A stretch of DNA of 64,000 bases from Chthonomonas calidirosea. GTDB lineage: Bacteria; Armatimonadota; Fimbriimonadia; Fimbriimonadales; Fimbriimonadaceae. The notes under the pieces are model-generated. The model did not search any database. It was not told where the DNA came from and saw only the letters and a program-made list of their open reading frames with translations. The translations under genes were made by a program, and so were the position numbers. Location: assembly GCA_945859975.1 (NCBI GenBank), contig CAMAPH010000003.1, positions 90,871-154,870 of the forward strand. Reading direction: 5' to 3'. Below, one piece after another: positions 5,898-38,959 of this stretch (its first letter is position 1; the number at the start of each line of letters is the position of its first letter).

Positions 5898-6939
5898 CGC
5901 CAAACTCGCGCTATACATGGAGCAGAGCCTCACCATTCCCGCCGGGAAGATGGGGCACGGCGTTCTTCGGTACTCGCCAAACGAGATCAGCGCCGTGATT
6001 GACTCCGAATTCGCCGGGAGATCAACCGGCGAGTTCGGTTTCCCGCGAGATGTTCCGATTGTCGCATCCGTTGAGGACGCCGCCGCCCTCGGTGCAAATG
6101 TCTTCGTTCTTGGGATTGCACCATCTGGAGGCGCAATTCCCGCCGAATGGTTTACGGTCATCGATCGGGCAGTCGAACTCAAAATGTCGCTGGTGAACGG
6201 ACTTCACGACCGTCTAGGCGCACGCTATACCGACCTCCCACGCCTTGAAGATGCCAAGGGCCGTGCTCAATGGGTCTGGGACATCCGAGTTGAACCCACT
6301 GGATTGGTGAACGGCACTGGATTGGCCGCAAAGTTCAATAACCGCCGTGTGCTGATCATCGGAACCGATATGGCGGTGGGGAAAATGACCGCCGGTCTAG
6401 AGATCAACCGCCTTGCGCTTGAGCGAGGCATCAAATCCGCGTTCGTGGCAACGGGCCAGATCGGAATCACGATCACCGGTGGCGGAGTTCCTCTCGATTG
6501 CGTCCGCGTGGACTTTGCGAGTGGCTCCATTGAGCGAGAAGTAGTCGCCGCAAGTTCAGCTGGCGCGGACTTGGTGATCATCGAGGGCCAAGGCTCCTTG
6601 GCACATCCGAGCAGCACGGCGAACCTACCACTTTTGCGCGGCTCGTGCCCAACGCATCTTCTGCTTTGCGTTCGAGCCAAGCAAGAGCACTTAAAGATGC
6701 TTGAGCACATCAAGGTTCCGGACCTTCGCCAGTTCATCACGTTGTATGAGGACCTTGCGGAGGCTGCTGGAACCTACCTACGCCCGAAAACGGTGGCGGT
6801 CGCCGTGAACACCGCCCATCTTTCCGAAGCGGAAGCCATTCCGGCGATTAAGGAGATTGAGGACCGGCTGCAGTTGCCTGCCGCCGATCCAGTTCGTCAG
6901 GGTCCGGTGCGATTGCTGGATGCTCTCGTTAGCCCATAG
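5884..6939 (+). CDS. DUF1611 family protein (DgcN-like)
   Basis: GIAPSGG, NGLH, GTDMAVGKMT, ATGQIG, IEGQGSLAHP; coupled to epimerase. Confidence 0.88.
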   Translation: MLPTNAKLALYMEQSLTIPAGKMGHGVLRYSPNEISAVIDSEFAGRSTGEFGFPRDVPIVASVEDAAALGANVFVLGIAPSGGAIPAEWFTVIDRAVELKMSLVNGLHDRLGARYTDLPRLEDAKGRAQWVWDIRVEPTGLVNGTGLAAKFNNRRVLIIGTDMAVGKMTAGLEINRLALERGIKSAFVATGQIGITITGGGVPLDCVRVDFASGSIEREVVAASSAGADLVIIEGQGSLAHPSSTANLPLLRGSCPTHLLLCVRAKQEHLKMLEHIKVPDLRQFITLYEDLAEAAGTYLRPKTVAVAVNTAHLSEAEAIPAIKEIEDRLQLPAADPVRQGPVRLLDALVSP

Positions 6940-8161
6940 GAGCAACGTTCCAAAGGGCTGCCATCGGCAAGCCGATGATGTGCTTGTTAATGCGAACCGT
7001 TCGAGTGCCATCGTACAGAATGACCCCGCGATGGAATCGCTCGGGATCGAGCGACTGGAGATACTCCAGCCCGTGCGAGTCACTCGGACTTAGGCTTCTT
7101 GAAGCTTTCACTTCAATACCGACAATCTTTCGGTCACCGACTTCCAGAACAAAGTCGACCTCTTTCTGACGCACCGTTCGCAGGTGGTGCAGCCATGGAC
7201 GAACGTCGGAGTACGTCTGCAGTCGAGCAAGCTCATTCGCCACAAAGCCCTCCAAAATCGGCCCAAGCCGCAGTCGATCCTGCTTCAGATGACTTGCCTC
7301 GATGTGCAGGAGGTGACTCGTCAGCAACGAATCACACAGGTACACCTTCGGTGACTTGACGAACCTCGTGCCGATGTTGCCGGACCACGCAGGTACCTGC
7401 TGGACCAAGAACATCTTCGCCATGAGATCGATGTAGCGACGAACCGTGGTGGACGGAATCCCGGTGTCTCGAGAAAGACTGTCGATGTTCAACGTGCCGC
7501 CGTTTCTTGCGGCCAGCAGGCGAAAAATCTGAGGAAACTGACGCGCCCCTTCGATGTTTGCCAAGTCGCGAACGTCACGATCAAGCAGCGTTCGAATGTA
7601 CGAATCTGCCCAGTCCCTACGCCGATCTGCCCTTCGAGCGAGGGCAGGCTGCGGAAATCCGCCCCGGACAACGCGGTCGATGAGATCGTCCTCCTCCGGC
7701 CAGGTCCCGGCCTGAATTGGATCATCCGAAAAGATGCGGTCGATGAAGTTTCCATCATGACCGTCAATTTCAGCCTGAGTGAGCGGAAGAAGATCGAGCA
7801 CCTCCATCCTGCCTGCAAGACTTTCCGAGACCTTCGGTAGCGTCAGTACGTTCGCCGAGCCGGTTAGGAGGTAGCGACCCGCTGTCCGGTTTCGATCAAC
7901 CCGGAGTTTGATCGGAAGCAACATCTTCGGCGCGCGCTGCACTTCGTCGATGGTCACCGCCCCCGGAAAGCTATCCAAGAAATCGCCCGCGTTCGTGGTG
8001 ATTTGCTCAAGAATGACCGGATCGTCAAGCGTGACGTACTCGCGGTCGGTCAGCTCCTCGACCAGCGTGCTCTTGCCCGCCTGTCGGGGACCAACGATCA
8101 TCGCTACCGGATTGTCCGAGAGCGCATCGCGCAGCTTCTTGATAAGTCTTCGCCTGACCAC
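6929..8161 (-). CDS. AAA_14 ATPase with DUF4143 and C-terminal PD-(D/E)xK-like domain
   Basis: Walker A GPRQAGKS, Walker B TIDEVQ, LTGS, SLAGR, GGFP, KSPKVY, EVDFV...GIEVK. Confidence 0.9.
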   Translation of the reverse strand: MVRRRLIKKLRDALSDNPVAMIVGPRQAGKSTLVEELTDREYVTLDDPVILEQITTNAGDFLDSFPGAVTIDEVQRAPKMLLPIKLRVDRNRTAGRYLLTGSANVLTLPKVSESLAGRMEVLDLLPLTQAEIDGHDGNFIDRIFSDDPIQAGTWPEEDDLIDRVVRGGFPQPALARRADRRRDWADSYIRTLLDRDVRDLANIEGARQFPQIFRLLAARNGGTLNIDSLSRDTGIPSTTVRRYIDLMAKMFLVQQVPAWSGNIGTRFVKSPKVYLCDSLLTSHLLHIEASHLKQDRLRLGPILEGFVANELARLQTYSDVRPWLHHLRTVRQKEVDFVLEVGDRKIVGIEVKASRSLSPSDSHGLEYLQSLDPERFHRGVILYDGTRTVRINKHIIGLPMAALWNVAPMG

Positions 8162-8188
8162 AAGAATAATTTACCTAACAACCTGCAC

Positions 8189-8342
8189 AATTCCACCATC
8201 AAGTAGCGGATTTTACACCACTAGATGGAGGATTTTACGCCATTTGTCGGCGGAGGACCCCACAACTCGTGGCGCAGAATTCGTCGATCCACGAAGGATA
8301 ATCCTCCACTTGGTGGCGGATTATCCACCACCAAGTGGAGGA
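8189..8342. repeat. tandem array of seven degenerate 22-bp palindromic units
   Basis: aattccaccatcaagtagcgga / ttttacaccactagatggagga / ttttacgccatttgtcggcgga / ggaccccacaactcgtggcgca / gaattcgtcgatccacgaagga / taatcctccacttggtggcgga / ttatccaccaccaagtggagga; exact 22-bp period. Confidence 0.85.
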
Positions 8343-8396
8343 TTATGACAAATTTTATCAGAAATCAAATTCGATTTCTAAGAAAGAACTGAAAAG

Positions 8397-9098
8397 TCAG
8401 CGACGCGCGGCTACGAGAATTTTGCGCCAGCGCTCAGACAAAAAGTCGGTCGAAACGCCTTTCTTGCCGCTCGAGCTATGAACAAAGTAGCCATTGCCTA
8501 GATAGATACCGGTATGACCAATCTTCCAGCGTCGGTTCTCCCAGAAGTACAACCGATCGCCCTTCTGCAAATCCTCTAAACGCTCGATTGGTTGCCCCAC
8601 CATGGCTTGCTCGGAGGCCGTTCGAGGGAGCTTTAAACCGATCTCGCCGTAAAGTTTCTGAACGAAGGCGCTGCAGTCGATTCCATTCTGGATATCGTTT
8701 CCACCCCACTTGTACGGCGTGCCGATGAAGTTCAACGACCATTGCGCCACCGCGCCACGAGAGGTGGTGCTTGCCAAAGGCAACCCTTTGGATCGCGTAT
8801 TCGACGCGCGAGACACCGTGACTTCATACGGGAGTACGGCTACTTTTGCGGACGGGACGTAGCCTTGGGTGCCGTTTGACATCAACACTTTCAACCACTT
8901 CGGGTTGCTGTACCAATTGACACAGATGTACTCAAACGCCTTGGCAGTGTAATAGGCGCGACTCTGGCTGTTGGGTGCGCGATAGATTTTGGTCGTTTCG
9001 ACGGTTTGGCCATACCGGCCGAGGACCGACTTGGTGTCAGCCGCAAGCACGCCTTGAGCAATCGCTAAGGCGGTTACGGTTAACACCAACGTTTTCAT
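8397..9098 (-). CDS. secreted SH3-like + NlpC/P60 (C40) peptidoglycan endopeptidase
   Basis: signal peptide; GTPYKWGG, DCSAFV, LPRTA, GDRLYF, GHTGIY, FVHSS. Confidence 0.92.
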   Translation of the reverse strand: MKTLVLTVTALAIAQGVLAADTKSVLGRYGQTVETTKIYRAPNSQSRAYYTAKAFEYICVNWYSNPKWLKVLMSNGTQGYVPSAKVAVLPYEVTVSRASNTRSKGLPLASTTSRGAVAQWSLNFIGTPYKWGGNDIQNGIDCSAFVQKLYGEIGLKLPRTASEQAMVGQPIERLEDLQKGDRLYFWENRRWKIGHTGIYLGNGYFVHSSSGKKGVSTDFLSERWRKILVAARR

Positions 9099-23705: not shown

Positions 23706-24866
23706 TTAGGGTCCGGCGCAGATCACCGTGCCCGAGTGCGATTTAATCGCGGTTAGCACGGTTAACTGCATTGGCGAGAAGTAGGGTTCCCAGCCGGTTA
23801 AAACTAGGTCCTGTGCCGGGTCAATCGGCTGGAAACACCACCCTGCAGGCTGCAAAGTGCCGATTTCGCCCGAGCGAGTGAATGCACGAAGAAGGTCGCG
23901 ACGAATGTCGTTGCTCATCTCGGAGACCACCAAGAGGCGCACGTCTCCGACGGTGCCCGACGATCCCATCTCCATGCTCCGAATCTTCACATCATTGGAA
24001 CTCAGCCACTGGTAAACGGTTGCTTTCACAAGGCCATCCGTAATTCGGACGGCAAGCGCGCGCCACCGGTCGCTGGTGGTCAACTGCATGTCTTGGACCT
24101 TGAAGCCCATCGGTAAGTTAGGAGGAAGGATGGGTGCAAAACCTAGCTTGCGCTTGGCATCCGGGGCTTTGAGGCTCTGCGGCGGATCGTATGACAAGAC
24201 TCTCGCACCGCCGACTGGTTTCATCTCGAAGCGCTCAGGATCAATTTCCGACGGAAACTGGATCTCACGCGTATCGTAAATGATCCTTTTGCCACCTTCG
24301 AGCGAACTCGTTTCCATCCGTAGCGGGTAACCCGTTTTTCGGTCAACGTAGTACCGACGAGTGTCCATTCGATCGTCGTGCGGCGATGCCACGATGCAGT
24401 GCGTGTCCCGCCCCGCGATCTTGACACTTGTTCCGAACTTAAGGTCGTAATTTTTCCTCGCAAGTTTCCAACGAGCCTCAGCGTCGTCCTCCTGCAAATG
24501 GGGAGAGGCCTGATCGATCATCACGTTTTGGTCGGGCAAATACACCCGTAAGCGTTTGCCGTCGTCTACCGACTCGGTGCCTTGGCGTCGAAGCGGCTGA
24601 GTTACGACGTGGTGAACCTTTCCGTCCTTCGAGCGTTCAACCCGAACGGTTTGGTGCTGATCCTCGCCCGCAGGGTCGCGCTGGATGATCACGGCCGTGA
24701 CGTGCGACGAGAAACTGCGTCGCATGCTTTTCAGTAGCCAAGCGTCGGCGTCGTCGCCACAGGTAGGCACTCCGGGGCCAGCGGCAACCGCAATTGGAAC
24801 AAGGCTCCAAGCAACGATCGGAAGCGCAAAAGCGGCTCGTTTAGCGATTCGGGTCAGATTGAACAT
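23706..24866 (-). CDS. MucB/RseB-like periplasmic sigma-E regulatory protein
   Basis: signal peptide; LolA-like pattern (IAGRDTHCI, RRYYVDRKTGYPLR, F.P, LPMGF); lies between anti-sigma and degP. Confidence 0.65.
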   Translation of the reverse strand: MFNLTRIAKRAAFALPIVAWSLVPIAVAAGPGVPTCGDDADAWLLKSMRRSFSSHVTAVIIQRDPAGEDQHQTVRVERSKDGKVHHVVTQPLRRQGTESVDDGKRLRVYLPDQNVMIDQASPHLQEDDAEARWKLARKNYDLKFGTSVKIAGRDTHCIVASPHDDRMDTRRYYVDRKTGYPLRMETSSLEGGKRIIYDTREIQFPSEIDPERFEMKPVGGARVLSYDPPQSLKAPDAKRKLGFAPILPPNLPMGFKVQDMQLTTSDRWRALAVRITDGLVKATVYQWLSSNDVKIRSMEMGSSGTVGDVRLLVVSEMSNDIRRDLLRAFTRSGEIGTLQPAGWCFQPIDPAQDLVLTGWEPYFSPMQLTVLTAIKSHSGTVICAGP

Positions 24867-25314
24867 TGATCACCGGGATGCCCCCCATCGGGTCCGTGCC
24901 GACGGCATAGATCTGATCACGCTGAATGTCAAAAGCGATCGATCGATCCGGGGTCGTCTGCGTTACCGGGGCGGAGTCCGCCTTTAAGACGAATTGTAAG
25001 ACCAATAAGGTAGCAACCATCGAGCAGGCAGCGATTCCGGCAAACGTGAACGCTGGTCGGAATTGGAAGTTCCACTGTTTGCGCGGTGGTTCCACTTGGC
25101 GCATCACGTTCGCGATGAGGCGCTCTTCGAAGCATTCTGCTGGCTCTGGGGCGGCGCAGCGACCGAGCATTTGTTTGATGGTCGCGAGCGAGTCCATCTC
25201 TTCGCGGCACGATGCACAGTCAAAAACGTGAGCCCGAACGGCCGTATGTTCGTTGCCTGGTAGCTCCTTATCCAGATAGGCACTCAGCCTTGCTTGCACG
25301 GCTTTACAGTTCAT
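24841..25314 (-). CDS. zinc-binding (zf-HC2/ZAS) transmembrane anti-sigma factor
   Basis: MNC...LSAYLD.EL, HVFDCASC (HxxxCxxC), one TM helix; start ATG 25314. Confidence 0.88.
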   Translation of the reverse strand: MNCKAVQARLSAYLDKELPGNEHTAVRAHVFDCASCREEMDSLATIKQMLGRCAAPEPAECFEERLIANVMRQVEPPRKQWNFQFRPAFTFAGIAACSMVATLLVLQFVLKADSAPVTQTTPDRSIAFDIQRDQIYAVGTDPMGGIPVINVQSDPNR

Positions 25315-25900
25315 TTGCAAACCTTCCAAAGAAATCTGGGGAGTTCTTGAGTAAGTGATCCCGAAGTTGCTTTCTACCCCGATGGATGCGGGACCTCACG
25401 GTGCCAACGCTTGTTTTCATAATCTCGGCGACTTCTTCGTACGCCATGCCTTCTACGTCCGCAAGAATAACGGCCGTTCGAAAATCCTCGTTCATCGAGA
25501 GCAAAGCCTTCTGAACTGGCTCCGCCATCGAATCATTCATAAGCTCTCGGTCGGGCGACGACTCCTCGTCAGCAACGTCCCAAGTCGTCGTTCCTTCTGG
25601 TCCCGAGTTGTCCAGGCTCGTGGTTTTGAGCCGACCTTTTCGGCGAATCAGGTCGATGTGCGTGTTGCTGATGATGCGATACAGCCAGCTGGTAAATGGC
25701 AGGCGGTCATCGTATTTATCGAAGAATCGGAACGCACGAACGAACGATTCCTGAACCAAATCCTCGGCTTCCGACGGATTTCCGGTTAGGCGATACGCAA
25801 GGCCGTAAGCCTGCTTGTGGGTATCACGAATGAGCCCCTCGAACATTCGCGCTCGATCTTTCACAACCTCGGTCCTTTCTCTCAAAGCTGCAAACAGCAT
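25304..25900 (-). CDS. ECF RNA polymerase sigma factor (RpoE/SigW-like)
   Basis: AEDLVQE.F, FTSWLYRI, GMAYEEVAE, GTVRSRIHRGR. Confidence 0.95.
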   Translation of the reverse strand: MLFAALRERTEVVKDRARMFEGLIRDTHKQAYGLAYRLTGNPSEAEDLVQESFVRAFRFFDKYDDRLPFTSWLYRIISNTHIDLIRRKGRLKTTSLDNSGPEGTTTWDVADEESSPDRELMNDSMAEPVQKALLSMNEDFRTAVILADVEGMAYEEVAEIMKTSVGTVRSRIHRGRKQLRDHLLKNSPDFFGRFANEL

Positions 25901-25932
25901 CGCATTACACTCCCTGAATGAGTACCAAAGGT

Positions 25933-25961
25933 GTTACGCATGATACGCGTGGTTAGGTTCC
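25933..25961 (-). promoter_or_regulatory. putative ECF autoregulatory promoter GGAACC-N17-CGTAAC
   Basis: AAC -35 and CGT -10 ECF signature about 33 nt upstream of the sigma start. Confidence 0.55.
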
Positions 25962-26933
25962 CGTTCTTGGGCCCTTCTTAGGTCGCAGCAGGCGCGCGAA
26001 CAGGGCGTCCGTTACGATCGCCTCGTGGCCATTCTGTTTGAGCCTACGGTGACTCTCGATTATTGCCTGCGTCCATTCGCCTGGAACCCGGTGATCTTTG
26101 GACAGCAACGTGCCGAGTCTTTCCAGCGTTTCTGCCGCGGCATAACGCTCTTTTCCGGGGAAAGCGGGTTCAAGCCGTTCGGTCAGGTCGCGAAAGTCCT
26201 CTGCCACCGCCAAAGCCGACGTGTGATTCTTGGTTGGCAATACGCGCGCAAATTCAATCAGCTCTGAGTACCGGTCCCGATGCTCAAAAATTTCACGCAG
26301 CCGGCCCGGGGTGTTTTCGGCCAGCGCAAGCTCGGCGGGCGTGAAGTCACCCATCTGGCTCACGATCTCTTCGACGGTTGGTAACTCGCACATCACGGCA
26401 AGACAACGACTTAGAATCGTTGGAAGAACGCTGCCCGCGCTTGGAGTGGTCAAAATGAATCGGCCATGCGGCAGGGGCTCTTCGAGCGACTTCAACAGCG
26501 CGTTTGCCGCGCGGTGGTTCATCCGGTGAGCGTCCGTGATCGTCACCACTTTATGGCGAGACATGAGCGGCATCGAGCGGAGGAAGGTGTCGACGGCTAC
26601 CGGATCATCTTTGTCTGGATGCTCATCTTCCCGAATCTGTTTAATCAGAATCTGGTCCGAGCTTGCGCTAGGCGTGATCGACAGAACGTCGGGATTGTTT
26701 CCCCGCTCATAGGCTCGGCAAGCCCGATCGGGTTCGCTAGAGATCGGGTCGTTGGACAGCCAAGCTTTCATCAGAATGCGCACCAGTTCTGACTTCCCGC
26801 TACCGGGTGGGCCATAAAACAGAACGGCGTGTACGCCGAGGTCTCCTACCGCGAGCTTGGAGACAAACCGCTTGGCGCCAGCGAGCCCGACAAGTTTGTC
26901 GAGTTCAGAATCGATGGAATTGCTCAACGTCAA
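25953..26933 (-). CDS. holB: DNA polymerase III delta' subunit
   Basis: HAVLFYGPPGSGK, PDV, IKQIRE, AANALLKSLEEP, LPTILSRC. Confidence 0.85.
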   Translation of the reverse strand: MTLSNSIDSELDKLVGLAGAKRFVSKLAVGDLGVHAVLFYGPPGSGKSELVRILMKAWLSNDPISSEPDRACRAYERGNNPDVLSITPSASSDQILIKQIREDEHPDKDDPVAVDTFLRSMPLMSRHKVVTITDAHRMNHRAANALLKSLEEPLPHGRFILTTPSAGSVLPTILSRCLAVMCELPTVEEIVSQMGDFTPAELALAENTPGRLREIFEHRDRYSELIEFARVLPTKNHTSALAVAEDFRDLTERLEPAFPGKERYAAAETLERLGTLLSKDHRVPGEWTQAIIESHRRLKQNGHEAIVTDALFARLLRPKKGPRTGT

Positions 26934-27234
26934 TCACAAACATTACCGCTCCACCAACTGGGACCTTGACCGGGCTCGGAATGAAGCCGCCAGGAGTTGT
27001 GGCGTCAAAAGGCATCACGTTCACGAGCTGGTCTCGAGATTGGCAACTTTCCTTGAACAGTTTTTTGAGGGCGGGCAGATCGTTCTCTTCCGAGCCGATG
27101 AGCATCGTGGTGTTTCCTTCCCGAAGGAAACCGCCGGTCGAACCGATGATCGTGAATTTGAATCCAGCTTTGACCAATTCATCGGTCACGTGGCCCTTGT
27201 CTCGGTTGTGGACAATGCAAACGGCGAGTTTCAT
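26905..27234 (-). CDS. darA: cyclic-di-AMP receptor, PII-like (DarA/PstA/YaaQ family)
   Basis: STGGFLREGNTT, VGGAVMFV; adjacent to holB. Confidence 0.88.
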   Translation of the reverse strand: MKLAVCIVHNRDKGHVTDELVKAGFKFTIIGSTGGFLREGNTTMLIGSEENDLPALKKLFKESCQSRDQLVNVMPFDATTPGGFIPSPVKVPVGGAVMFVIDVEQFHRF

Positions 27235-27320
27235 TAAGCCTGATTATAAAGGAAGCGCCGAACCGCGTGGGTTGCGGATTCAAAAACGCATCACGAACTC
27301 AGACTCCGATCGCCAGACAC

Positions 27321-27353
27321 AAAAAAGCTCCGACGCATTTGCATCGGAGCTTT
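27321..27353 (-). terminator. intrinsic terminator of prepilin-lipoprotein module 1
   Basis: aaagctccga..tcggagcttt stem with T-run on the minus strand. Confidence 0.75.
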
Positions 27354-27358
27354 CAAGT

Positions 27359-27544
27359 TTATTCGCCCTGGCTCGTAGGCTTTTCGATGGTTTCGCCTCG
27401 CTGTTGAGCGAGAGCTTCTGCCTTCTTTTCTTGGTTCTTGTAGCTCGCCTCGGCGCCTTCGGCCGAGACGTCTCCCCCACCGGAACAACCGGCAAGGGAG
27501 AAGATCGCTAGACCAAGTGCCAGACACTTAGTCCAGTTGCTCAT
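27359..27544 (-). CDS. small lipoprotein (61 aa)
   Basis: lipobox LAGC; TGATG overlap with upstream prepilin-like stop. Confidence 0.8.
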   Translation of the reverse strand: MSNWTKCLALGLAIFSLAGCSGGGDVSAEGAEASYKNQEKKAEALAQQRGETIEKPTSQGE

Positions 27545-28494
27545 CAGTTCTGGAGGCCCCAGAACGGATAGTTAAGGTTGGTGGTCGGCGTTGGCTGACC
27601 GGAGATCGTGCCGCTCGAAATTCCGCACTGCTGCGAAGCGTTGAGGGTCACACCGTACTCGGCGGCGGTAGGCGTGTTGCCAAGGAATGCCTGTGGCTTG
27701 ATGCTCTTCGCGTGGCCGTCGGCGTATCCGACAACGATGCTCTCGGCGAAGACTCGGCTGGAGTCGATTCGACCGGTGTTGACGCAGCTAGCATCGGTGA
27801 CGAAGAAGTTCGCTGCCCAGAATTCTCGGATGGCGGCTGGGTAAACGGTCTGCTCAGATGCCGAGCTCTGATCGGCTCGGAGAACGACTGGCGCGTAGTT
27901 GATGAGCGGGTTGCTGAATTCGAACAACAGCATTGCGTCAGCAACGGCTGGAAGAGCGTTCTGGCTGCCACCGAAGATCGAGTTTCGAAGTCGGCCTGCA
28001 GCCGTGTTCGATCGTAGGTAGGTGTTGACCGCACCGGTGATACCGAGGTTAAGTGCGAAGCCACCCATGATCTGACCGTTGTCGCTCCACTGTCGAGGCG
28101 TACCAGCGTCAATCTTGGTTCGACCTGGGTGCTCGAAGAGGCCTACGTTCTTGGTGTAAGGCAACACCCACTTCTGCCAAGAGTAGTGGTTCATTCGGTA
28201 TGGGTACGGACCTGCACCCGAGCAGCCGTCGCCGTTCGAAGGCGTATAGCTAGCTGCATTGAGGGCTGGGTTGAGCGCGGATCGAGCGATACAATCGTCG
28301 TTTCGAGGATAGATATCGTCGTAGTCGCTGGTGTACAGGAACATGCTGGTCGAGATCTGCTTCTGGTTCGAGAGAGCAGCAGTCTTCTTTGCAGCAGCCT
28401 TAGCCTGTGCGAAAACTGGGAAAAGGATAGCTGCGAGAATCGCGATGATCGCGATAACTACGAGCAGCTCAATGAGGGTAAATGCCTTTTTCAT
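27544..28494 (-). CDS. prepilin-type N-terminal cleavage/methylation protein (DUF1559-like) 1
   Basis: [45 protein letters not shown]-terminal YADGHAK. Confidence 0.92.
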   Translation of the reverse strand: MKKAFTLIELLVVIAIIAILAAILFPVFAQAKAAAKKTAALSNQKQISTSMFLYTSDYDDIYPRNDDCIARSALNPALNAASYTPSNGDGCSGAGPYPYRMNHYSWQKWVLPYTKNVGLFEHPGRTKIDAGTPRQWSDNGQIMGGFALNLGITGAVNTYLRSNTAAGRLRNSIFGGSQNALPAVADAMLLFEFSNPLINYAPVVLRADQSSASEQTVYPAAIREFWAANFFVTDASCVNTGRIDSSRVFAESIVVGYADGHAKSIKPQAFLGNTPTAAEYGVTLNASQQCGISSGTISGQPTPTTNLNYPFWGLQN

Positions 28495-28631
28495 GAGTCT
28501 ATATTGGGATCCGAAACTACCGCTTCGCGACCTCACGAAAATTGTGAGTTGGAATTGTTAAGACTTTGTTAACGACATCCGAATAAATTCGCTGATTTTT
28601 GAAAGCTCATGAACTCCATTCGCCCAGATGG

Positions 28632-28665
28632 AAAACGGGTGCGGGTGACTTTGCCACCCGCACCC
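28632..28665 (-). terminator. intrinsic terminator of module 2
   Basis: gggtgcgggtg/cacccgcaccc stem, T-run on the minus strand. Confidence 0.75.
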
Positions 28666-28680
28666 AACCGAGACTTAGAC

Positions 28681-28833
28681 TCAGTACGCGTTCTTATCGT
28701 CGCCGGTTGCTTTTCGCTCTTTTTCGATCGCGGCTTGTGAGTCTTGCGCTTCCTTTTGGGTCGGTTCTCCGCAACCGCTCAGGAGAGCGGCGCAGACGAT
28801 TCCGAGCGCAAGAAAGATCGCAAGTCGACTCAC
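28681..28833 (-). CDS. small lipoprotein (50 aa), absent from ORF track
   Basis: hand translation [50 protein letters not shown]; lipobox LSGC; GTGA overlap with prepilin-like 2 stop. Confidence 0.8.
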
Positions 28834-29804
28834 TGTCCGAGGCCCCAGAGTGGGTAGTTCACGTTGAGGTTAACCGCAGCACCAAGTCGCTGGGTCGAAC
28901 CAGCGAGCCCAGCGGCCGTTGGGCTCATTCCTGGCGAGTACTCGGCGATGGTTGGCGTTGCGCCGATCATGGCTTCGGCCTTCAGGTACTTCGCGTGGCC
29001 ATCCGCGTAGCCAATCGTGAATCCACCGTTTTCGGTTCGAGCTTCAATGATCGTCTTGCCGACGACCGTTCCGTCGTTGGTTCCGTTGTACAGGTCGTTG
29101 ATGAGGTGCTCTCGAACAACTGCTGGGTAAACGGTTGCGGTTCGGTTGGTGAACTCAGCGTCAAGGAATCCGTTTGGAAGCACCGACGTCGTTGGGTTTG
29201 ACGTGACCCAGAACAGCATGGTCGAAGCAGGCTGTACGAGGGCAGTCTGAGTTCCACCGGTCCAGCTGTTTCGATAGATTCGGGAGCTAGCACCGATCAC
29301 GGCTTCGTCGTAGGTGTTCAACGATCCGGTGATCGCAAGGTTGATTGCGTAGCTGCCGAACATCTGACCGCAAGATTCCCAAGCGCCGTTTGGACAGCCG
29401 AAGGTTGCACCGGTGACTCGACCCTTAACTGGGTTGAAGAACATGTCAACGTTCTTAACGTATGGCATAACCCACTTTGGCCAGCTGAAGTGGTTCAACC
29501 GGTTGTAGAACTGAGTCGATCCATCTGGCGTGCATCCCTGACCGGCGGCCGAGTTGAGCGCCGCAGTCTTGAGCGCTGGATTCAGCGAGCTGAAGAGCAC
29601 GCACTCGTCGTTTCGAGCGTAAACGTCATCGTAGTCGCTGGTGTACAGGAACATACTCGTCGTGATCTGCTTCTGGTTGGAAAGCGAGGAAGTTCGCTTC
29701 GCGGCGGCCTTCGCCTGAGCGAAAACTGGGAAGAGAATTGCCGCGAGAATCGCGATGATCGCGATGACGACGAGGAGCTCAATCAGGGTAAATGCCTTTT
29801 TCAT
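28830..29804 (-). CDS. prepilin-type N-terminal cleavage/methylation protein (DUF1559-like) 2
   Basis: same N-terminus and YADGHAK; ends NYPLWGL. Confidence 0.92.
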
Positions 29805-29948
29805 GATGTCCGTTCCTGCAGGTGCCCAAAATCCCGAACGACCTCAACACCCACCGTCCACGAGTAGTTTAAGGACAAATTGTTAAGAGTGTTTTAAGTT
29901 TCTTTGGTTTTGCAAAAGAAACTGAGAACACCGTAGTTTTGCCAGCCG

Positions 29949-29984
29949 AAAAAAAGGCGACCACGGAATTGTCCGTGGTCGCCC
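29949..29984 (-). terminator. intrinsic terminator of module 3
   Basis: ggcgaccacgga/tccgtggtcgcc stem, T7 on the minus strand. Confidence 0.8.
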
Positions 29985-30006
29985 TTTCCGCCAATACGCG
30001 ACTGGC

Positions 30007-30228
30007 TTACTGTTGCCCTTCGACCTGACCGTCGTTTCGAGCGGCTTCCCGAGCTTTCTGCTCTTCGAGCTCTTTCTCTTTCCCGGCGGCTTTCATGGCC
30101 TTTTCGTAGTTCTCCTGAGAGAACTCCTGCTTCATCTTTTGTGAATCAGCTTCCGTCACCTCGGTTGGTGCACAACCGAGGCTACAGACTGCAATGACGC
30201 CCAAAAGCAAAAGTCCAAGCTTCTGCAC
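30007..30228 (-). CDS. small lipoprotein (73 aa)
   Basis: GTG start in TAGTG overlap with prepilin-like 3 stop; lipobox SLGC; charged helical body. Confidence 0.78.
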   Translation of the reverse strand: MQKLGLLLLGVIAVCSLGCAPTEVTEADSQKMKQEFSQENYEKAMKAAGKEKELEEQKAREAARNDGQVEGQQ

Positions 30229-31202
30229 TAGTTCGCTACCAGTCCCCACATTGGGTAGTTGATGTTCAAGTTCGGCTGCACGAAGCCGAGGTTGCCCGAG
30301 GTCAGGTACCGGCAGTCGTCCTGGAAGGTCCAGCCTGCGGTGTGGCTACCCGTCACGCCCAAGTACTCGAGCTTCGAAGGGGTTCGGCCGAGGAAGTTTC
30401 CAGCATTAAGGAACTTCGCGCTGCCGTCAGTGAAGCCAACGGTGACGCCGCCCGAAGCGATCTTTGCCGAGTCTGGCTCGGTTCCGCTGGTTCCTGCGAT
30501 GCAGTCAGCGATCGTGCCCTTCATGAGCTTATAACGCCAGAATTCCCGGATTGCTGCTGGGTAGATCGTGACGGTTGGGGTGATTCCCTGGGAGTCGACC
30601 GATCCGCCTGGAAGCATTGGAACGCCGGAGTTTGGAACTTCCAGCATGATCAACGTCTCGGATGGCGATGGAACCGAGGTGGTGGAACCGCCAAGCCAGC
30701 TGTTTCGAACCTGTCGCGAGAAGGTCGGCGTTCGGTTGTAGGTGTCCAACTGTCCGGTAACCGAGGTATTCAGTGCAAAACCGCCAACGATCTGGCCGTT
30801 GTTGTTCCAGTTTGCGCTGTCCTTAACGCGAAGTGGGTGCTCGAAGAGAGGAACGTTCTTGATGTACGGGAAAACCCACTTCTGCCAAGAGAAAGCGTTT
30901 CGTCGGTACTTGAAGTTGCCGGTGGTGCAGCCGACGCCGATACCGTTAGCCGGAAAGTCGTTGAGGTTCAGAGCTGAGTTCAGCGAGCTACCAGCAACGC
31001 AATCGTCGTTTCGCGGATACAGGTCGTCGTAGTCGGTGGTGTAGAGGATGATGCCGAGACCGATCTGCTTCTGGTTCGAAAGTGCAGCGGTCTTCTTCGC
31101 CGCAAGCTTGGCTTGTGCGAATACAGGGAACAAGATCGCCGCTAGGATCGCAATAATCGCGATCACGACTAGGAGCTCGATAAGGGTGAATGCTTTTTTC
31201 AT
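30228..31202 (-). CDS. prepilin-type N-terminal cleavage/methylation protein (DUF1559-like) 3
   Basis: [11 protein letters not shown] start at 31202; FTDGSAK; ends NYPMWGL. Confidence 0.92.
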   Translation of the reverse strand: MKKAFTLIELLVVIAIIAILAAILFPVFAQAKLAAKKTAALSNQKQIGLGIILYTTDYDDLYPRNDDCVAGSSLNSALNLNDFPANGIGVGCTTGNFKYRRNAFSWQKWVFPYIKNVPLFEHPLRVKDSANWNNNGQIVGGFALNTSVTGQLDTYNRTPTFSRQVRNSWLGGSTTSVPSPSETLIMLEVPNSGVPMLPGGSVDSQGITPTVTIYPAAIREFWRYKLMKGTIADCIAGTSGTEPDSAKIASGGVTVGFTDGSAKFLNAGNFLGRTPSKLEYLGVTGSHTAGWTFQDDCRYLTSGNLGFVQPNLNINYPMWGLVAN

Positions 31203-31343
31203 GAGAGACGCTCTTCGTTCGAACCGAACAATGAAATTTTGCCCTTTTTTTGTTAACAAAATGTTATTGGGCCGCAAAAAGTCTAGTCCGGACTTGGTGC
31301 CCCGTCAAGGTCGCGTCAGGCACGTGCGCCATTCTGCCCCCTC

Positions 31344-32594
31344 CTATTCTTTGTAGAGTCGAGCTTGTTCCCGGAAGCCAGCAAACTCTAGAACTTCATG
31401 TTCCATCCGACCGGTAATTTCTGCAAGTGAGGTTTGGCTTTCGATGACATTACGAAGCCAGTCATTACCCGCGAGAATGTCGATTGGCATTCGATCGTGA
31501 ACGTATTCGTACGGTGGTTGTTTCCAGGAGAATCCGTTTAGTTGAGTCTCCGCCGACGCCGCTTCAAACATGCTTGGGCGTTCAACTTTGCTGGAATCGA
31601 CAAGGCCGGTCTGACGAATACAGGCTTGAAGAATCGCAATGTAGGTCAACACCGGACGAAACGTTAAGCGATCCGTGACATGGACAAAACATCCCTCGCA
31701 CAGCTTTTTGGCGTGCTTGTTGAAAGTTGGTTCGAACTGGATCGGGCGGAACTTCACACCTTCCAAACCAAGCCCGTTGAGATCTTCCGCCAGCTTCCAA
31801 CCGTCCAAGAACGGCGCGCCAAAGGTTTCAAAGGGTCGAGTTGTACCGCGGCCCTCGCTTAGGTTTGTGGCCTCCAACAGGCAACCGCCGGGATAGACAA
31901 CCGCCGTTTCGACGGTGGGCATGTTTGGGCTTGGCATTGCCCACGGATAGTCGAGCGTATCGAAATACTGATCCCGGTGCCAACCCTGGACCTCCACGAT
32001 GTCCACCTCGGCCCGACCCGACAAGTAGCGGGCATTGACGTAGCGAAGCACCTCTCCTGCGGTGAGTCCATGGCGAGTTGGGACGGAGTACAGACCCACA
32101 AAACTCGAATACGTCATGTCCAAAACCGGCCCTTCCACCTGAGTGCCGCCGATTGGATTGGGGCGATCGAGGAGCAGCATCGGAATCCCCAGCTCGGAAC
32201 AAGCCTCCATGCAATGACAGATCGTCCAGACGAAGGTGTAATAGCGGCTGCCAATGTCGGGGATATCTGCGACCAAGAGCTCAACACCGGTGAGCATTTC
32301 GGCGGTCGGCTTTCGATGATTGCCATAGAGCGAATGGATCACGAGTCCGGTCCGCGAATCGGGCAAACCTTCCCACTCGATCATGTTGTCTTGGGTGTGC
32401 CCATAAAGCCCGTGCTCGGGCCCGAAGACTGCCGCGATCGTGAGAAAACCGGATCGGTGGAGCGGCAAGAGCAAATCCAGAATGTGATCTGCGTTCACAT
32501 CGATGGTCGCTTGGTTGCACACGACGCCAATCCGCTTTCCGCGCAATTTTGCGAAGTCCGAGGCGACAAGCTGATCAAGTCCGGTTGCGATCAC
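31344..32594 (-). CDS. DUF1343 / NamZ-like exo-beta-N-acetylmuramidase
   Basis: FGPEHG, SLYG, DIPDIGSRYYT, LDRPNP, RHGLT.GE, PSPNMP, SEGRGTTRPFE. Confidence 0.88.
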   Translation of the reverse strand: MIATGLDQLVASDFAKLRGKRIGVVCNQATIDVNADHILDLLLPLHRSGFLTIAAVFGPEHGLYGHTQDNMIEWEGLPDSRTGLVIHSLYGNHRKPTAEMLTGVELLVADIPDIGSRYYTFVWTICHCMEACSELGIPMLLLDRPNPIGGTQVEGPVLDMTYSSFVGLYSVPTRHGLTAGEVLRYVNARYLSGRAEVDIVEVQGWHRDQYFDTLDYPWAMPSPNMPTVETAVVYPGGCLLEATNLSEGRGTTRPFETFGAPFLDGWKLAEDLNGLGLEGVKFRPIQFEPTFNKHAKKLCEGCFVHVTDRLTFRPVLTYIAILQACIRQTGLVDSSKVERPSMFEAASAETQLNGFSWKQPPYEYVHDRMPIDILAGNDWLRNVIESQTSLAEITGRMEHEVLEFAGFREQARLYKE

Positions 32595-32630
32595 CGCTGA
32601 ACTTTACTCTCCGGAACGACCGCCGAAAGA

Positions 32631-32663
32631 ATTTGTCACGGCAACGTCACGGAGATGTTTCGG
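32631..32663 (+). promoter_or_regulatory. heptamer direct-repeat box (GTCACGG, 11-bp period)
   Basis: atttGTCACGGcaacGTCACGGagatGTTTCGG upstream of 32714. Confidence 0.6.
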
Positions 32664-32713
32664 GACGGTTGGAATCATGTATCCATCGCTCAAAGAGAGC
32701 GAGAAGAGAAACC

Positions 32714-33622
32714 ATGAAAAATTCGCAAATCCTCGTTGCTCGTGCTCTGTTCATTTCCGGCGTAGCAATGGCACTTGCGTCGGGTGCCAATGCCCAGTTT
32801 TCCTTCACCCCAAAGGCCCCCCAGCACCTGTTCCGCGCCGAACAGATGGCGCTCGGGATCCACGAACAAACTTACTATGGCCACCTGGGCGAGCATGTGA
32901 ACGGAGCATACGTCTCCCACAATCGATACGGGGCCAGTTGGGCAAACACGGTCGTTGAGTTCGGAACCTCGATCTACACCAAAGACAAGCCGGTGTACGC
33001 GACCTACTACAAGAACAATACGGTCTGCGGAAACTTCGTCACGCGGATGCTGGGAGTCGCCTACAACTGGGATTGGACCCAGTACAGCATTCCTGGCGAA
33101 ACGGCAACGAACAGCCCAAACAGCCGACAGTACGCGAAGCTGATTCAAAACAACATCGGATTCACGCAAGTCACCGACATTGCGACCGTGACAAAAGGCG
33201 ACATCATGGTGATCGACTACAAGACGGATCCCGACAGTGACGTCAATAGCGGTCACACGATGATCGTTCGAAGCAACAACGGCTTCTTCACGACTCAAGC
33301 CGATGCGGTTGAAAGCAAGGTGTACCGAGTTTGGTCGTTCGGGATCGTCGACAGCACTTCTTCGCCCCACGACGACACGTATGACCGTGCCGATAGCCGC
33401 AGAATCACCTTGAAATCTGGTGCGACGCACTCGGCCAAGGGTGCCGGAGTTGGGACGCTCTTTGTGATCACAGACACGGCCAACGCCATTCAGGGATATG
33501 CCTGGAAGTTTACGACGGCTTCGTTTAGTAAGTCGTACACGAACATCATGAGCAATAGCGGCCAGACCCAGACGGCAAGACCGATCTCCATTGGTCGGCT
33601 GATCCTGCCAGCACAACCTTAA
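32714..33622 (+). CDS. secreted hypothetical protein, possible papain-like/NlpC-P60 fold
   Basis: signal peptide ending ANA; VCGNFV...KGDIMVI...SGHTMIV. Confidence 0.7.
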   Translation: MKNSQILVARALFISGVAMALASGANAQFSFTPKAPQHLFRAEQMALGIHEQTYYGHLGEHVNGAYVSHNRYGASWANTVVEFGTSIYTKDKPVYATYYKNNTVCGNFVTRMLGVAYNWDWTQYSIPGETATNSPNSRQYAKLIQNNIGFTQVTDIATVTKGDIMVIDYKTDPDSDVNSGHTMIVRSNNGFFTTQADAVESKVYRVWSFGIVDSTSSPHDDTYDRADSRRITLKSGATHSAKGAGVGTLFVITDTANAIQGYAWKFTTASFSKSYTNIMSNSGQTQTARPISIGRLILPAQP

Positions 33623-33628
33623 AGGCGT

Positions 33629-34027
33629 CTATCCAACGCTCATGCCATCGACAATCGCCTGGAAGGCTGATTTCCAGGCGGTTTCCACTTCTGGTGTCCA
33701 TTGCTCGCCTAGGGTAAGCGCCATTTCCGTCAACAGAACCTGCCCCATCGGTGCGTAATGGTCCGGCTTCACGCCGTACGCCTCGTGCCGCTTTCCGAGC
33801 CCGGAGAGCATTGGCTCCAGAATCTCCGGGTGTTCGATCTGCTCCACTAGAAAACTCAGCATCTCCATCAGGCGAGCTTTCTGCCTCGTCATGTCGGTGC
33901 CAAACATCGGTCGGGTCTCCGGCAGTGCAGCAAACAGCGCGGAATAGAATCGTTCGGCAAAATCCGACTCGGGTGCGCCGAGAAGGGTCACCGAACGGTT
34001 TAACTCGCGAATCTGATTCGACGTCAT
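33629..34027 (-). CDS. single-domain globin (flavohaemoglobin-like globin domain)
   Basis: FY..LF...PE.RPMF, Q(E7), LGKRH..YGV...HY, AW. Confidence 0.9.
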   Translation of the reverse strand: MTSNQIRELNRSVTLLGAPESDFAERFYSALFAALPETRPMFGTDMTRQKARLMEMLSFLVEQIEHPEILEPMLSGLGKRHEAYGVKPDHYAPMGQVLLTEMALTLGEQWTPEVETAWKSAFQAIVDGMSVG

Positions 34028-36924: not shown

Positions 36925-36969
36925 GCCGACTATTATTGCAAAGTGCGAGCAAAACTTGGCAAAAAATGC

Positions 36970-38010
36970 CTAGTCCGCGGTGGCGTAGATGGCTTCGTCT
37001 TCCGCCGTAAACGGCAAATCCACCCTTCCACCGGTACGGCCGGAATGGTAAGTGGCAAAGATAAGCTCCGTTGCGCGCAGGGCCCGGCGAGCCGAGAGTT
37101 CCGACTCTTGACCGGTTTCGAGGCTAGCCGCGATATCGGCGAAAGCCAAAGCAAACGCGTCGAGTTCGCCGTCCTCGAGCTTGATCGAGATTTCTTCCCA
37201 ACCATTTGTCCCATCCGACCAAACGCGGAGCGAATCCCAACTGGTCGCGCCAATCTCAATGAATCCCTTTGAACCTACAACCCGAATCTGCACCTTCCAG
37301 CCGTGATCGCCCTCGGTGGGCATGATCGCTCGGACGCCGTTCTCAAACTTGATGAGACTGACACCTTGGCCTTCCAACTGGACGCCGAACACTTTGTGTC
37401 CGCCCGATGGCTCAACTTGTCCCAGAACCGATACTGCCGGTGATTCGGCATTGAGGAAGAACGCCATGTCGAACCAGTGGGTGCCCCAGTCGAAAAGGTT
37501 ATGCGTCGGTAGCTCAAGCACCTGAAGCTCGCCAATTCTCCCGGACTCGATGAGGGATTTCGCGATGGTGTACGCCTTGTCGAACCGGCGCTGGTGGTTG
37601 AAGGTGAGTTGCGTTCCGGATGCCGCACAGGCTTCGACCATTCGTTTTGCCGCGGCCCAGGTTGGAGCCATTGGCTTCTCGCAGTGGACGGCCGGAACCT
37701 TCGCCTCGGCGCAAGCAAGCACCATCGACTCGTGAAGGTGGGGCCAAGTGCAAATGCTTACAAGGTCCGGCTTCACCGTTTCCAGCATTTCTTTGTAATC
37801 CGTAAAGATTTCTGCTGGGCCGTGTTCCTCTGCAAATGCTTCGGCGTTCTCGCGAACAATGTCGGCCAGCGCGACCAGTTCGGTATTGGGACACGCGATG
37901 TACCCACGCGCATGGCTGTGGGAAATGCCGCTACCGGTTGAACCCTCAGCTTTCCAGGGCTTGCCGCAACCGATGATGGCCGAACGAAGAATCCGCGATG
38001 ATCCTGACAT
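36970..38010 (-). CDS. Gfo/Idh/MocA oxidoreductase
   Basis: IIGCG, ICTWPHLH, CEKPMA, NHQRRF, DWGTHWFD. Confidence 0.92.
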   Translation of the reverse strand: MSGSSRILRSAIIGCGKPWKAEGSTGSGISHSHARGYIACPNTELVALADIVRENAEAFAEEHGPAEIFTDYKEMLETVKPDLVSICTWPHLHESMVLACAEAKVPAVHCEKPMAPTWAAAKRMVEACAASGTQLTFNHQRRFDKAYTIAKSLIESGRIGELQVLELPTHNLFDWGTHWFDMAFFLNAESPAVSVLGQVEPSGGHKVFGVQLEGQGVSLIKFENGVRAIMPTEGDHGWKVQIRVVGSKGFIEIGATSWDSLRVWSDGTNGWEEISIKLEDGELDAFALAFADIAASLETGQESELSARRALRATELIFATYHSGRTGGRVDLPFTAEDEAIYATAD

Positions 38011-38019
38011 TTGGCGAGT

Positions 38020-38904
38020 CTACAACGGCGGCATGACGAAGGAGATCGCTTTCGGGAGCACCCGAGTTCTAAATCCGCCGGGAGCGGTCAGTTCTCCGTC
38101 CATGAGCACGGGGGTGTCATTCGGACCAATGACTTCTATGGATTCGGTCTGCCAAGTTTGCACTTTCGGATGACCGAGGTGCGCGCCTTTAAAGACCTTG
38201 GGAAACTGCCGAAGAAATTCCGACTTGCTCATTTCGCCCACCAAAACCACTTCAAGCTTGCCGTCGTTGATGTTTGCGTTCGGGGCGATGCGCATTCCGC
38301 CGCCGTAGCTTTGGCAGTTTGCGACCGCGCACAGAACAGCAAGGGTTTCCAGCGACTCTTCTTCGGTTTTGATTTTCAGGCGGATAGGTTCAAAACGGCG
38401 CAGTTCACTGATCACCGCAAGGATGTACGCGGCGGTGCCGGTCGTGAAGCGAAAACCTTGATTGATCCGATTTGCCACCACGGCATCAAATCCCATCCCG
38501 GCCACGTTGATCCAGAACTTGTCTCCCGCGATGGCAATGTCGATCTTTTCCGTGTGCCGTTCTGCGAGCACGTTGAAGGCACTTGGAAGATTGAGTCCGA
38601 TTCCCGCGCATCGCGCGAAATCATTGCCGGTACCCACCGGCAGAACTCCAAGGGCGGGGAGATTGCCCTTCCTCCGCATGGCACCGTTAAGTACTTCTCG
38701 CAGGGTGCCGTCACCGCCGGCGGCAATCAGCACATCGCAATCCGGCGCGGTCGTGGCCAGTTGGGTGGCGTGGCCGGATCGCTCGGTGAACATGAACTGG
38801 GTGTTCCAGCCGACCTGTTTGATCCAGGTCTGGATTTCAGATATCGCACGTTGGGCTCTGCCGCGACCTGCCGACGGATTGAGAATGATGACGGCGTCCA
38901 GCAA
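38020..38904 (-). CDS. diacylglycerol/lipid kinase (YegS/DagK family)
   Basis: NPSAG, AGGDGT, PVGTGNDFA, GFDA, YGGGM.IAP, DGE. Confidence 0.92.
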   Translation of the reverse strand: MLDAVIILNPSAGRGRAQRAISEIQTWIKQVGWNTQFMFTERSGHATQLATTAPDCDVLIAAGGDGTLREVLNGAMRRKGNLPALGVLPVGTGNDFARCAGIGLNLPSAFNVLAERHTEKIDIAIAGDKFWINVAGMGFDAVVANRINQGFRFTTGTAAYILAVISELRRFEPIRLKIKTEEESLETLAVLCAVANCQSYGGGMRIAPNANINDGKLEVVLVGEMSKSEFLRQFPKVFKGAHLGHPKVQTWQTESIEVIGPNDTPVLMDGELTAPGGFRTRVLPKAISFVMPPL

Positions 38905-38959
38905 CTATCCGGACCTCCCGGAGCACAAGGAATCGCCGCCCCGAGTACGCTCGGAGGCG

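Follow-up and report, generated by a model that had tools for sequence, protein, structure and literature searches.

The array of seven repeat units directly upstream of an ATPase-nuclease gene in the 64,000-nucleotide stretch of Chthonomonas calidirosea DNA analysed here (the window) is best explained as the operator of that gene, read by the winged helix of the gene's own product, autorepressing and expanded in this lineage; we put the probability of this reading at about three in four. A conserved site that overlaps the promoter of its gene and accompanies that gene is what characterises an autoregulatory operator, and such a site is present here. Operators of this type appear to accompany PDC-S01 genes in many bacteria, and the product of the gene itself is the most likely protein to bind the enlarged copy described here. 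The features of the locus are the following.

6929..8161, minus strand: PDC-S01 gene (AAA_14 plus DUF4143), 410 amino acids, GTG start; STAND-like ATPase, winged helix and PD-(D/E)xK tail
7103..7249, minus strand: predicted PD-(D/E)xK catalytic motif E310, D336, E350, K352, intact, located by alignment columns
7334..7498, minus strand: predicted winged helix-turn-helix, residues about 222-276, with predicted helices 226-233 and 237-249 and strands 253-256 and 272-275
8168..8173, minus strand: TAAATT, likely the -10 element of a leaderless promoter, 6 nt from the GTG and at a position shared with homologues
8189..8232, no strand: proximal operator block, units 1-2, over the -35 position; 18.1 and 23.6 bits with a matrix trained without the own lineage
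8233..8298, no strand: decayed middle units 3-5, in phase, gap-free in the three-genome alignment
8298..8346, no strand: distal operator block, units 6-7, which form a 49-bp palindrome and score 27.4 and 28.0 bits, the highest values in the genome; 110 bp separate it from the proximal block
8352..8380, minus strand: possible second promoter TAGAAA-17-TAAAAT with TG extension, a consensus match only
8397..9098, minus strand: NlpC/P60 gene (Pfam), conserved upstream neighbour, outside the module

Layout of the repeat array

The original prediction, made from the sequence of this DNA, described seven head-to-tail units at an exact period of 22 bp (8189-8342), the first of them 27 nt upstream of the GTG, and a near-perfect palindrome at 8298-8346. 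Both descriptions and their coordinates were right, the GTG being at 8161; the palindrome has 24-nt arms that are 96% complementary, with 1 nt between them. Identity within the array is 0.57 at lag 22, 0.48 at lag 44 and 0.54 at lag 66, with 0.15-0.3 at most other lags. The lag-22 value is the highest in the window among stretches of 158 bp (99.9th percentile 0.46), and the array is the only region in the whole 3.12-Mb genome (95.8% complete) with a lag-22 identity above 0.5 per 110 bp. TRF reported units 6-7 alone.

The best units had been described as containing a dyad. Only units 1, 2, 6 and 7 are strong (18-28 bits with an independent matrix); units 3-5 are weak, with 4.8 bits for unit 3, less than 3 bits for unit 4 and 6.5 bits for unit 5. 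The half-site comprises 8 bp, T-Y-C-n-C-C-A-Y, plus an AT-rich flank, and its orientation alternates every 10 and 12 bp, giving the 22-bp period. A further claim was that all dyads face the same side of the helix. The in-vivo helical repeat is near 11 bp per turn, and with this value the units do share one face, but a helical repeat of 10.5 bp turns every unit by ~34 degrees, so that the units spiral and units 1 and 7 come to lie on nearly opposite faces.

REP-like dispersal of the unit, which had been named as a point to check, was found nowhere in the genome by either the lag-22 scan or the motif scan. A CRISPR array was rejected, as the units are degenerate and head-to-tail without spacers, and so was a repeat RNA of the Rfam type, with no match at gathering level in the array.

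The array might nevertheless act as RNA, either as a hairpin that terminates or stabilises the NlpC/P60 message or as a small antitoxin RNA resembling those of type III toxin-antitoxin systems. The sense strand does fold (z -9.4, with a 25-bp stem), and the changes seen in the two other genomes of the lineage keep the palindrome paired, being mostly compensatory or G-U; yet any dyad array folds and mutates symmetrically. There is no U tract, 0 terminator-like sites were found, the only Rfam matches are sub-threshold ones to miRNA hairpins, and the corresponding repeat of a sister clade is not palindromic. Furthermore, the unit of relatives precedes the -10 of a leaderless gene and so falls outside the transcript of that gene, which argues against a function as RNA. 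We consider this highly improbable.

Promoter and neighbouring genes

The hexamer TAAATT that had been placed 6 nt before the GTG was found at 8173-8168 on the minus strand. A TAnnnT ending exactly 6 nt before the start codon is present in 33 of the 77 dyad-bearing order-level homologues; this is by far the modal distance (next 9). The -10 TA..T is retained in G073, another genome of the lineage, and an extra weak half-site at 8166-8177 (6.7 bits) overlaps TAAATT. The promoter of the ATPase-nuclease gene is probably leaderless, with the operator over or beside the -35. The suggested overlap of operator and promoter is in line with this, the TAnnnT spacing matching that of homologues and units 1-2 covering the -35 position. 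A promoter-consensus search of the array region found 2 sites against 0.4 expected. A consensus match at 8352-8380 ends just before the distal block and its transcription start would fall on that block, so that the block could instead guard a second promoter. In two RNA runs (X1 and X2; shares 0.07, contigs only) neither the array nor the gene was covered.

The neighbours of the gene encode NlpC/P60, a purQ-like amidotransferase, DUF1611 and an enolase-family epimerase. These are housekeeping genes, and the two flanking proteins tested gave 0 PADLOC matches, so a defence-island context is absent. NlpC/P60 lies upstream in 33 of the 71 Fimbriimonadaceae-level (f1) loci and DUF1611 downstream in 15, both of which are undercounts as the flanks were short. 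The GC3 of the gene is like that of its neighbours, and together with the fixed neighbourhood this suggests a vertically inherited gene rather than an island-like one.

The ATPase-nuclease protein

The predicted identity of the gene product as an AAA_14/DUF4143 ATPase-nuclease was confirmed by Pfam matches to both domains (AAA_14, E 6.8e-22; DUF4143, E 8.4e-40) and by a full-length match of the 410-aa protein to the PADLOC PDC-S01 profile PDLC04790 (E 1.2e-144). The gene is the only PF13635 (DUF4143) match in the genome, and the close relatives of its product are found in the Fimbriimonadaceae and Fimbriimonadales. DUF4143 is listed as a PD-(D/E)XK family (PMC3424549), and PDC-S01 is described as an ATPase fused to a PD-(D/E)XK domain (PMC12988326).

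An AlphaFold2 model (pLDDT 90.3) comprises an ATPase domain, a helical lid, a winged helix and a C-terminal alpha/beta domain. The predicted recognition helix is 237-249, starting P236-S237-T238, and residues 201-251 gave a weak match to an HTH regulator (E 0.044). The ATPase motifs G29-K30-S31 (Walker A), D72-E73 (Walker B) and R118 are intact. A sequence search of the PDB with the 410-aa protein gave 0 matches. The best structural matches of residues 1-286 were two archaeal ATPase-wHTH proteins of the STAND / Cdc6-Orc1 clade, PAB2304 (2qen; Z 15.7, rmsd 4.5, 246 residues aligned) and SSO1545 (2fna; Z 14.4, rmsd 4.3, 245 aligned), followed by STAND proteins and Cdc6/Orc1 (DNA-bound 2qby, Z 9.8). 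Unlike PAB2304 and SSO1545, to which it is 17-18% identical, the 410-aa protein carries an extra C-terminal nuclease domain. Cdc6/Orc1 proteins (2qby, 2v1u) bind origin repeats via their winged helix. A homodimer prediction returned a score of 0.00, which gives no answer either way.

In the mechanism we propose, the winged helix would read the 8-bp half-site, and the bound protein would cover the -35 of the leaderless promoter and so repress its own gene. The ATPase domain would probably let neighbouring subunits co-operate, and thereby oligomerise, along the phased sites.

Conservation of the dyad upstream of homologues

A homologue match was obtained in 105 of the 201 order-level genomes. 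After removal of five duplicates, 110 distinct loci were fetched, of which 107 could be parsed (87 of the close clade and 20 of other subfamilies). The motif was trained on 84 upstream regions from Fimbriimonadales, with the own genome and two near-identical relatives left out, and came out de novo as the dyad AAWATTCnCCAc-N3-gTGGnGAATWTT. Its four best matches genome-wide are units 7, 6, 2 and 1 of the array (28.0, 27.4, 23.6 and 18.1 bits), followed by a site at 16.8 bits.

The dyad scores above 12 bits upstream of the gene in 69 of the 84 training loci, an in-sample figure, and 15 of the 84 are without it. Out of sample, it was found above this threshold in 40 of 73 metagenome loci and in 3 of 10 plasmid loci (Azotobacter, Pseudomonas and Thermus), 7 of the original 90 loci having been dropped for a short flank or lack of a Walker A motif. 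With the 27-column matrix none of the control windows of the training loci exceeded 12 bits (0/83 far-upstream, 0/84 in-gene, 0/84 downstream), the same controls gave 0 for the out-of-sample loci, and shuffled controls gave 3/3340. Among other PDC-S01 subfamilies 1 locus of 20 exceeded the threshold. Inspection of homologue upstream regions had been proposed as a check, and it returned the same dyad at the same place in most close homologues.

The original prediction also regarded the gene and its cis array as one unit. This is supported, since the dyad travels with the gene: around NlpC/P60 none was found in any of the five genus genomes in which the ATPase gene was not found (best score 4.5 bits). 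A mobile cassette flanked by a direct repeat, the other copy lying at the stop codon, was considered as well and rejected: such a repeat was seen in 0 of the 84 order-level loci and in a single locus (L166) among 117 dyad-class loci.

Recognition helix and repeat type

When 165 proteins were sorted by their upstream repeat, 117 belonged to the dyad class, 21 had a non-palindromic 22-bp repeat (AnTCCnaATTgGaCGA) and 27 had neither. The recognition helix of this sister clade (21 loci) mostly starts with D-x-K-T, versus P-x-T/S-T/S in the dyad class. In their mutual information with repeat class, positions 236, 238 and 240 rank 2, 4 and 7 among 410. In a FastTree phylogeny built without the winged helix, the split between dyad and direct repeat is a single change and so represents one event. 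The expected co-variation of the repeat with the winged-helix clade is suggested by these ranks and by a sister clade that differs in both helix and repeat, but the main split amounts to one change on the tree.

Within the dyad class, a post hoc partial Mantel test on residue columns (95 non-redundant loci, tree distance removed) placed residue 237 at rank 3 of 343 columns. Glutamine at this residue goes with the half-site TCA(A/T)CCA, histidine with TTCCCCA and alanine with T(C/T)CACCA. Many of the top 25 columns fall within 223-244, and the highest ranks are taken by columns 205 and 331, outside the recognition helix. These associations favour a direct readout of the operator by the own winged helix. 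That the ATPase itself is the likely reader had been suggested at the outset, and this suggestion is strengthened by the dyads in place upstream of homologues and by a repeat type that seems to follow the recognition helix.

Sites away from an intact gene bear on the same question. Orphan operators in three genomes (G021, G033 and G004) sit on deletion remnants of the ATPase gene; those of G033 and G004, where the full-length gene of this clade was not found, still score 41 bits. A shared remnant breakpoint, which would have pointed to a non-autonomous element, was rejected: G021 differs from the other two, in which the breakpoint lies at a short internal microhomology. The three-half-site pattern gave 114 rows in the 201 genomes, of which 62, from 35 genomes, fall on the gene or on remnants of it. 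Elsewhere it gave 48 collapsed sites, 36 in the 92 gene-bearing genomes (control 11) and 12 in the 109 others (control 15), a difference with a Fisher p of 0.01. This p is an overstatement, given that sister genomes share several of the sites as orthologues and that an orphan operator is counted among them. Some of these secondary sites are lineage-specific sites of operator strength (24-34 bits with a 41-column matrix) inside unrelated coding regions. A site in an aldehyde dehydrogenase gene, for example, occurs in 2 of 16 orthologues and is missing from five further gene-bearing genomes, and a 33-bit site occurs in 2 of 13 orthologues of genus g2. A conserved regulon was therefore rejected, the extra sites lying in unrelated genes. 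In the own genome there is no secondary site above 14 bits (control 11.3).

It is conceivable that an unlinked host regulator, and not the ATPase, reads the sites, given the orphan operators that persist in two genomes without a full gene found and the extra sites away from the gene in some genomes. However, the same dyad accompanies the gene onto plasmids of Proteobacteria and Thermus, different motifs occupy this position in other clades of the gene, and the secondary sites form no common regulon, with none above 14 bits here. We regard a host regulator as very unlikely and the ATPase as the probable reader.

Expansion of the array

With 11 phased half-sites in this genome (G000), 10 in G038 and 11 in G073, the arrays of this three-genome lineage are the longest in the set. 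The operators of relatives usually have 2-5 half-sites over the leaderless promoter (median 3-4). Judged from this set, the length of seven units is a lineage-specific expansion of an operator of 2-5 half-sites and not the norm of the family.

Between this genome and G073 the protein is 96% identical at the amino-acid level and four-fold sites are 52% identical. Of the 22 positions per unit, 17, 14, 12, 6, 11, 20 and 19 are identical in units 1 to 7, respectively. Units 3-5 (29/66 identical) diverge at the neutral rate, taken from the four-fold sites, and the decayed units differ between the two genomes, whose arrays align without an indel. What is conserved are two blocks at a distance of 110 bp with a drifting spacer between them that stays in phase, an arrangement like that of main and auxiliary operators; a pair of in-phase blocks is also present at metagenome locus L137. 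Selection would have kept both blocks as the operator grew from 2-5 half-sites to seven units in this lineage, and they may be connected by a loop or a continuous filament.

As to why the operator grew, the expansion might tighten the control of a protein with an intact nuclease motif. Within f1, copies with an intact nuclease have a median of 5.5 half-sites versus 3 in the others (naive p 0.01), a comparison that reduces to 3 independent pairs (p 0.5 in a sign test). Outside the family, the operators of intact copies are short, with a median of 3-4. For both reasons the case for tighter control is weak.

Alternatively, the operator may be real and its extra units the product of a neutral tandem amplification that is now decaying. 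This is compatible with the neutral divergence of units 3-5 and with relatives that manage with 2-5 half-sites, and self-correction of the palindrome could also preserve units 6-7. On the other hand, units 6-7 are the best conserved (39/44) though farthest from the promoter, and neither the indel-free alignment with G073 nor the two in-phase blocks of L137 fit this explanation well. We see it as a serious but minority possibility next to an expansion kept by selection.

Relation to known systems

The locus resembles PDC-S01 (PDLC04790; AAA_14 plus DUF4143; COG1373) in its full-length profile match, in the combination of an ATPase with a PD-(D/E)XK domain and in being a single gene. It differs in the phased operator that forms part of the unit, as the accessible text of PMC12988326 mentions no cis element. 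An upstream operator for DUF4143, COG1373 or PDC-S01 genes was not found in the literature naming them, including the accessible parts of PMC3424549, PMC12988326 and PMC13356809; this search covered few subscription papers.

The C-box pairs of restriction-modification controller proteins are dyads that lie in pairs over the promoter of the regulator itself, which is often leaderless, and the auxiliary operators of lac, gal and ara form a second block in helical phase ~100 bp away. The array is like both in having dyads over its own promoter and a second in-phase block. In contrast to C-box systems, the putative reader is a domain of the ATPase-nuclease itself and not a separate small regulator, and neither a methylase nor another second gene is present.

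Plasmid iterons and parS/parC arrays share a period of ~22 bp, a head-to-tail arrangement, a position beside a winged-helix or ATPase gene and, on the reading proposed here, autorepression. The array differs from them in being chromosomal, in its palindromic units and in having no Rep, ParA or ParB neighbour, no AT-rich unwinding element and no DnaA-box cluster. The original prediction had considered an iteron- or parS-like assembly, and a platform for replication or segregation would agree with a fold related to Cdc6/Orc1 and DnaA, with one half-site that is one mismatch from a DnaA box and with the position of the gene, 25-281 kb from dnaA in 6 of the 7 family-level genomes where both share a contig and ~18 kb from the cumulative GC-skew minimum of its own contig. 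The dnaA-side position is, however, explained by linkage to NlpC/P60-purSQ, and the gene lies near the terminus in two genomes (G056 and G021). It was not found in 15 of 46 genus genomes and is thus dispensable. Searches with general consensus sequences placed the canonical parS on another contig and found a single DnaA-like box, with no cluster in the window. This part of the prediction was not borne out, and we give an origin-like role only a very slim chance.

Nuclease decay and possible roles

Of the 71 f1 proteins, 8 have a complete E310-D336-E350-K352 motif, three of them from this lineage; it is complete in 16 of 16 proteins of family f4 and 75 of 78 others (91/94 outside f1; the labels f1 and f4 were assigned by hand). 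The ATPase motifs are intact in 165 of 165 proteins, and the operator is kept in 56 of the 63 f1 genes without a canonical nuclease motif. This nuclease-dead, operator-keeping pattern in the Fimbriimonadaceae is new here. As the nuclease is apparently dead and the site kept in most close relatives, a DNA-binding role rather than phage defence only is suggested.

We know of no established substrate or mechanism for PDC-S01. It is reported to rank fourth in frequency among the defence-type systems of prokaryotes (PMC12988326), and an Argonaute/plasmid study lists a homologue from Thermus among up-regulated genes (PMC4406477). The array could sequester an active ATPase-nuclease until phage infection releases it, which would be compatible with its proposed function as an operator. 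Membership of a PADLOC candidate family, the catalytic motif intact here as in 91 of 94 homologues outside the family, and plasmid copies that adjoin toxin-antitoxin and transposase genes are consistent with such a switch. However, the 145 PDC candidates were described as untested when defined (10.1101/2024.01.29.577857), and another PDC-S01, assayed against T4, T5 and T7, fell outside the four systems that gave protection (10.1101/2024.09.26.614923). Neither flanking gene tested matched PADLOC, and in the family the motif is degenerate in 63 of 71 orthologues and the locus largely fixed. A housekeeping neighbourhood, a fixed position and the decay of the nuclease in most orthologues speak against the suggested role in defence, which did not find support; we hold the switch to be possible, though doubtful.

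A broader view would treat PDC-S01 proteins as self-addressed, sequence-specific DNA-binding ATPases that have been domesticated in the Fimbriimonadaceae, where repeated decay of the nuclease would have left ATPase, winged helix and operator in place. The selected function would then be ATP-dependent assembly on phased sites, with a live nuclease held here by two looped or bridged blocks and a chromosomal role beyond self-repression indicated by strong secondary sites within unrelated host genes. We consider this rather unlikely as a whole. A family that keeps the ATPase and the operator but mostly not the nuclease motif does call into question the counting of all PDC-S01 as defence.

The candidate cognate site defined here offers a first direct handle on the biochemistry and structure of PDC-S01, including the protein-DNA complex, its ATP dependence and cleavage near the site, with residue 237 as a candidate natural specificity code. 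Seven more f1 proteins carry Q-x-K in the nuclease motif and may be active.

Operator sites at other loci

Among the 117 dyad-class loci, in which the gene of the PDC-S01 ATPase (AAA_14 and DUF4143) has a palindromic half-site operator, L166 is the only one to carry, besides the upstream operator, a full copy of it at the gene's 3' end. Intact operators were found on ATPase gene remnants at three loci, where an internal deletion has fused the last 30–40 codons to the operator; the breakpoint in G021 differs from that in G033 and G004. Phased sites of operator strength (23–34 bits with the 41-column scoring matrix) are located within the coding regions of unrelated genes in ATPase-bearing genomes, and their distribution is lineage-specific.

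Operators on ATPase remnants and within unrelated genes (L, fetched loci; G, order-level genomes)
L293, G021: intact operator on ATPase remnant
L239, G033: intact operator on ATPase remnant
L240, G004: intact operator on ATPase remnant
L233–L236, G007 and G029: intragenic operator-strength sites
L226, G200: intragenic operator-strength site
L230–L231, G104 and G186: intragenic operator-strength sites
L297, G002: intragenic operator-strength site
L294, G075: intragenic operator-strength site
L228–L229 and L248–L250, genus g18: intragenic operator-strength sites, in DUF1611

At L117 and L127, a second 22-bp tandem array of different sequence lies immediately upstream of the dyad operator. Its lag-22 identity is 0.93 in L117, a Pseudomonas mendocina plasmid, and these second arrays are possibly plasmid iterons.

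Inspection by eye of other PDC-S01 subfamilies of the same order (L097–L115) revealed distinct palindromes of their own immediately 5' of the start codon. The upstream motif of L112, L114 and L115, which belong to another subfamily than the window's gene, is in part identical over 13–14 nt to the decayed unit 5 of the array (8285–8298, minus strand). The genome studied yielded no member of that subfamily, and the shared stretch is not conserved in the near relative G073. The match is probably due to chance.

Other features of the window

8354–8385: imperfect, AT-rich inverted repeat of 32 bp between the array and the NlpC/P60 stop codon, overlapping a possible second promoter
about 26300: switch of cumulative GC skew from negative to positive (region about 24000–40000; contigs C3 and C19 of the genome studied, G000)
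27544–31277, minus strand: three tandem paralogues, presumably prepilin-type

The gene dnaA is located on a different contig, which has no skew switch; the replication origin may be unlinked from dnaA. A search of the window detected no cluster of DnaA boxes. The three paralogues share an N-terminal motif of 12 residues, and their upstream sequences are alike and contain TTGTTAAG.
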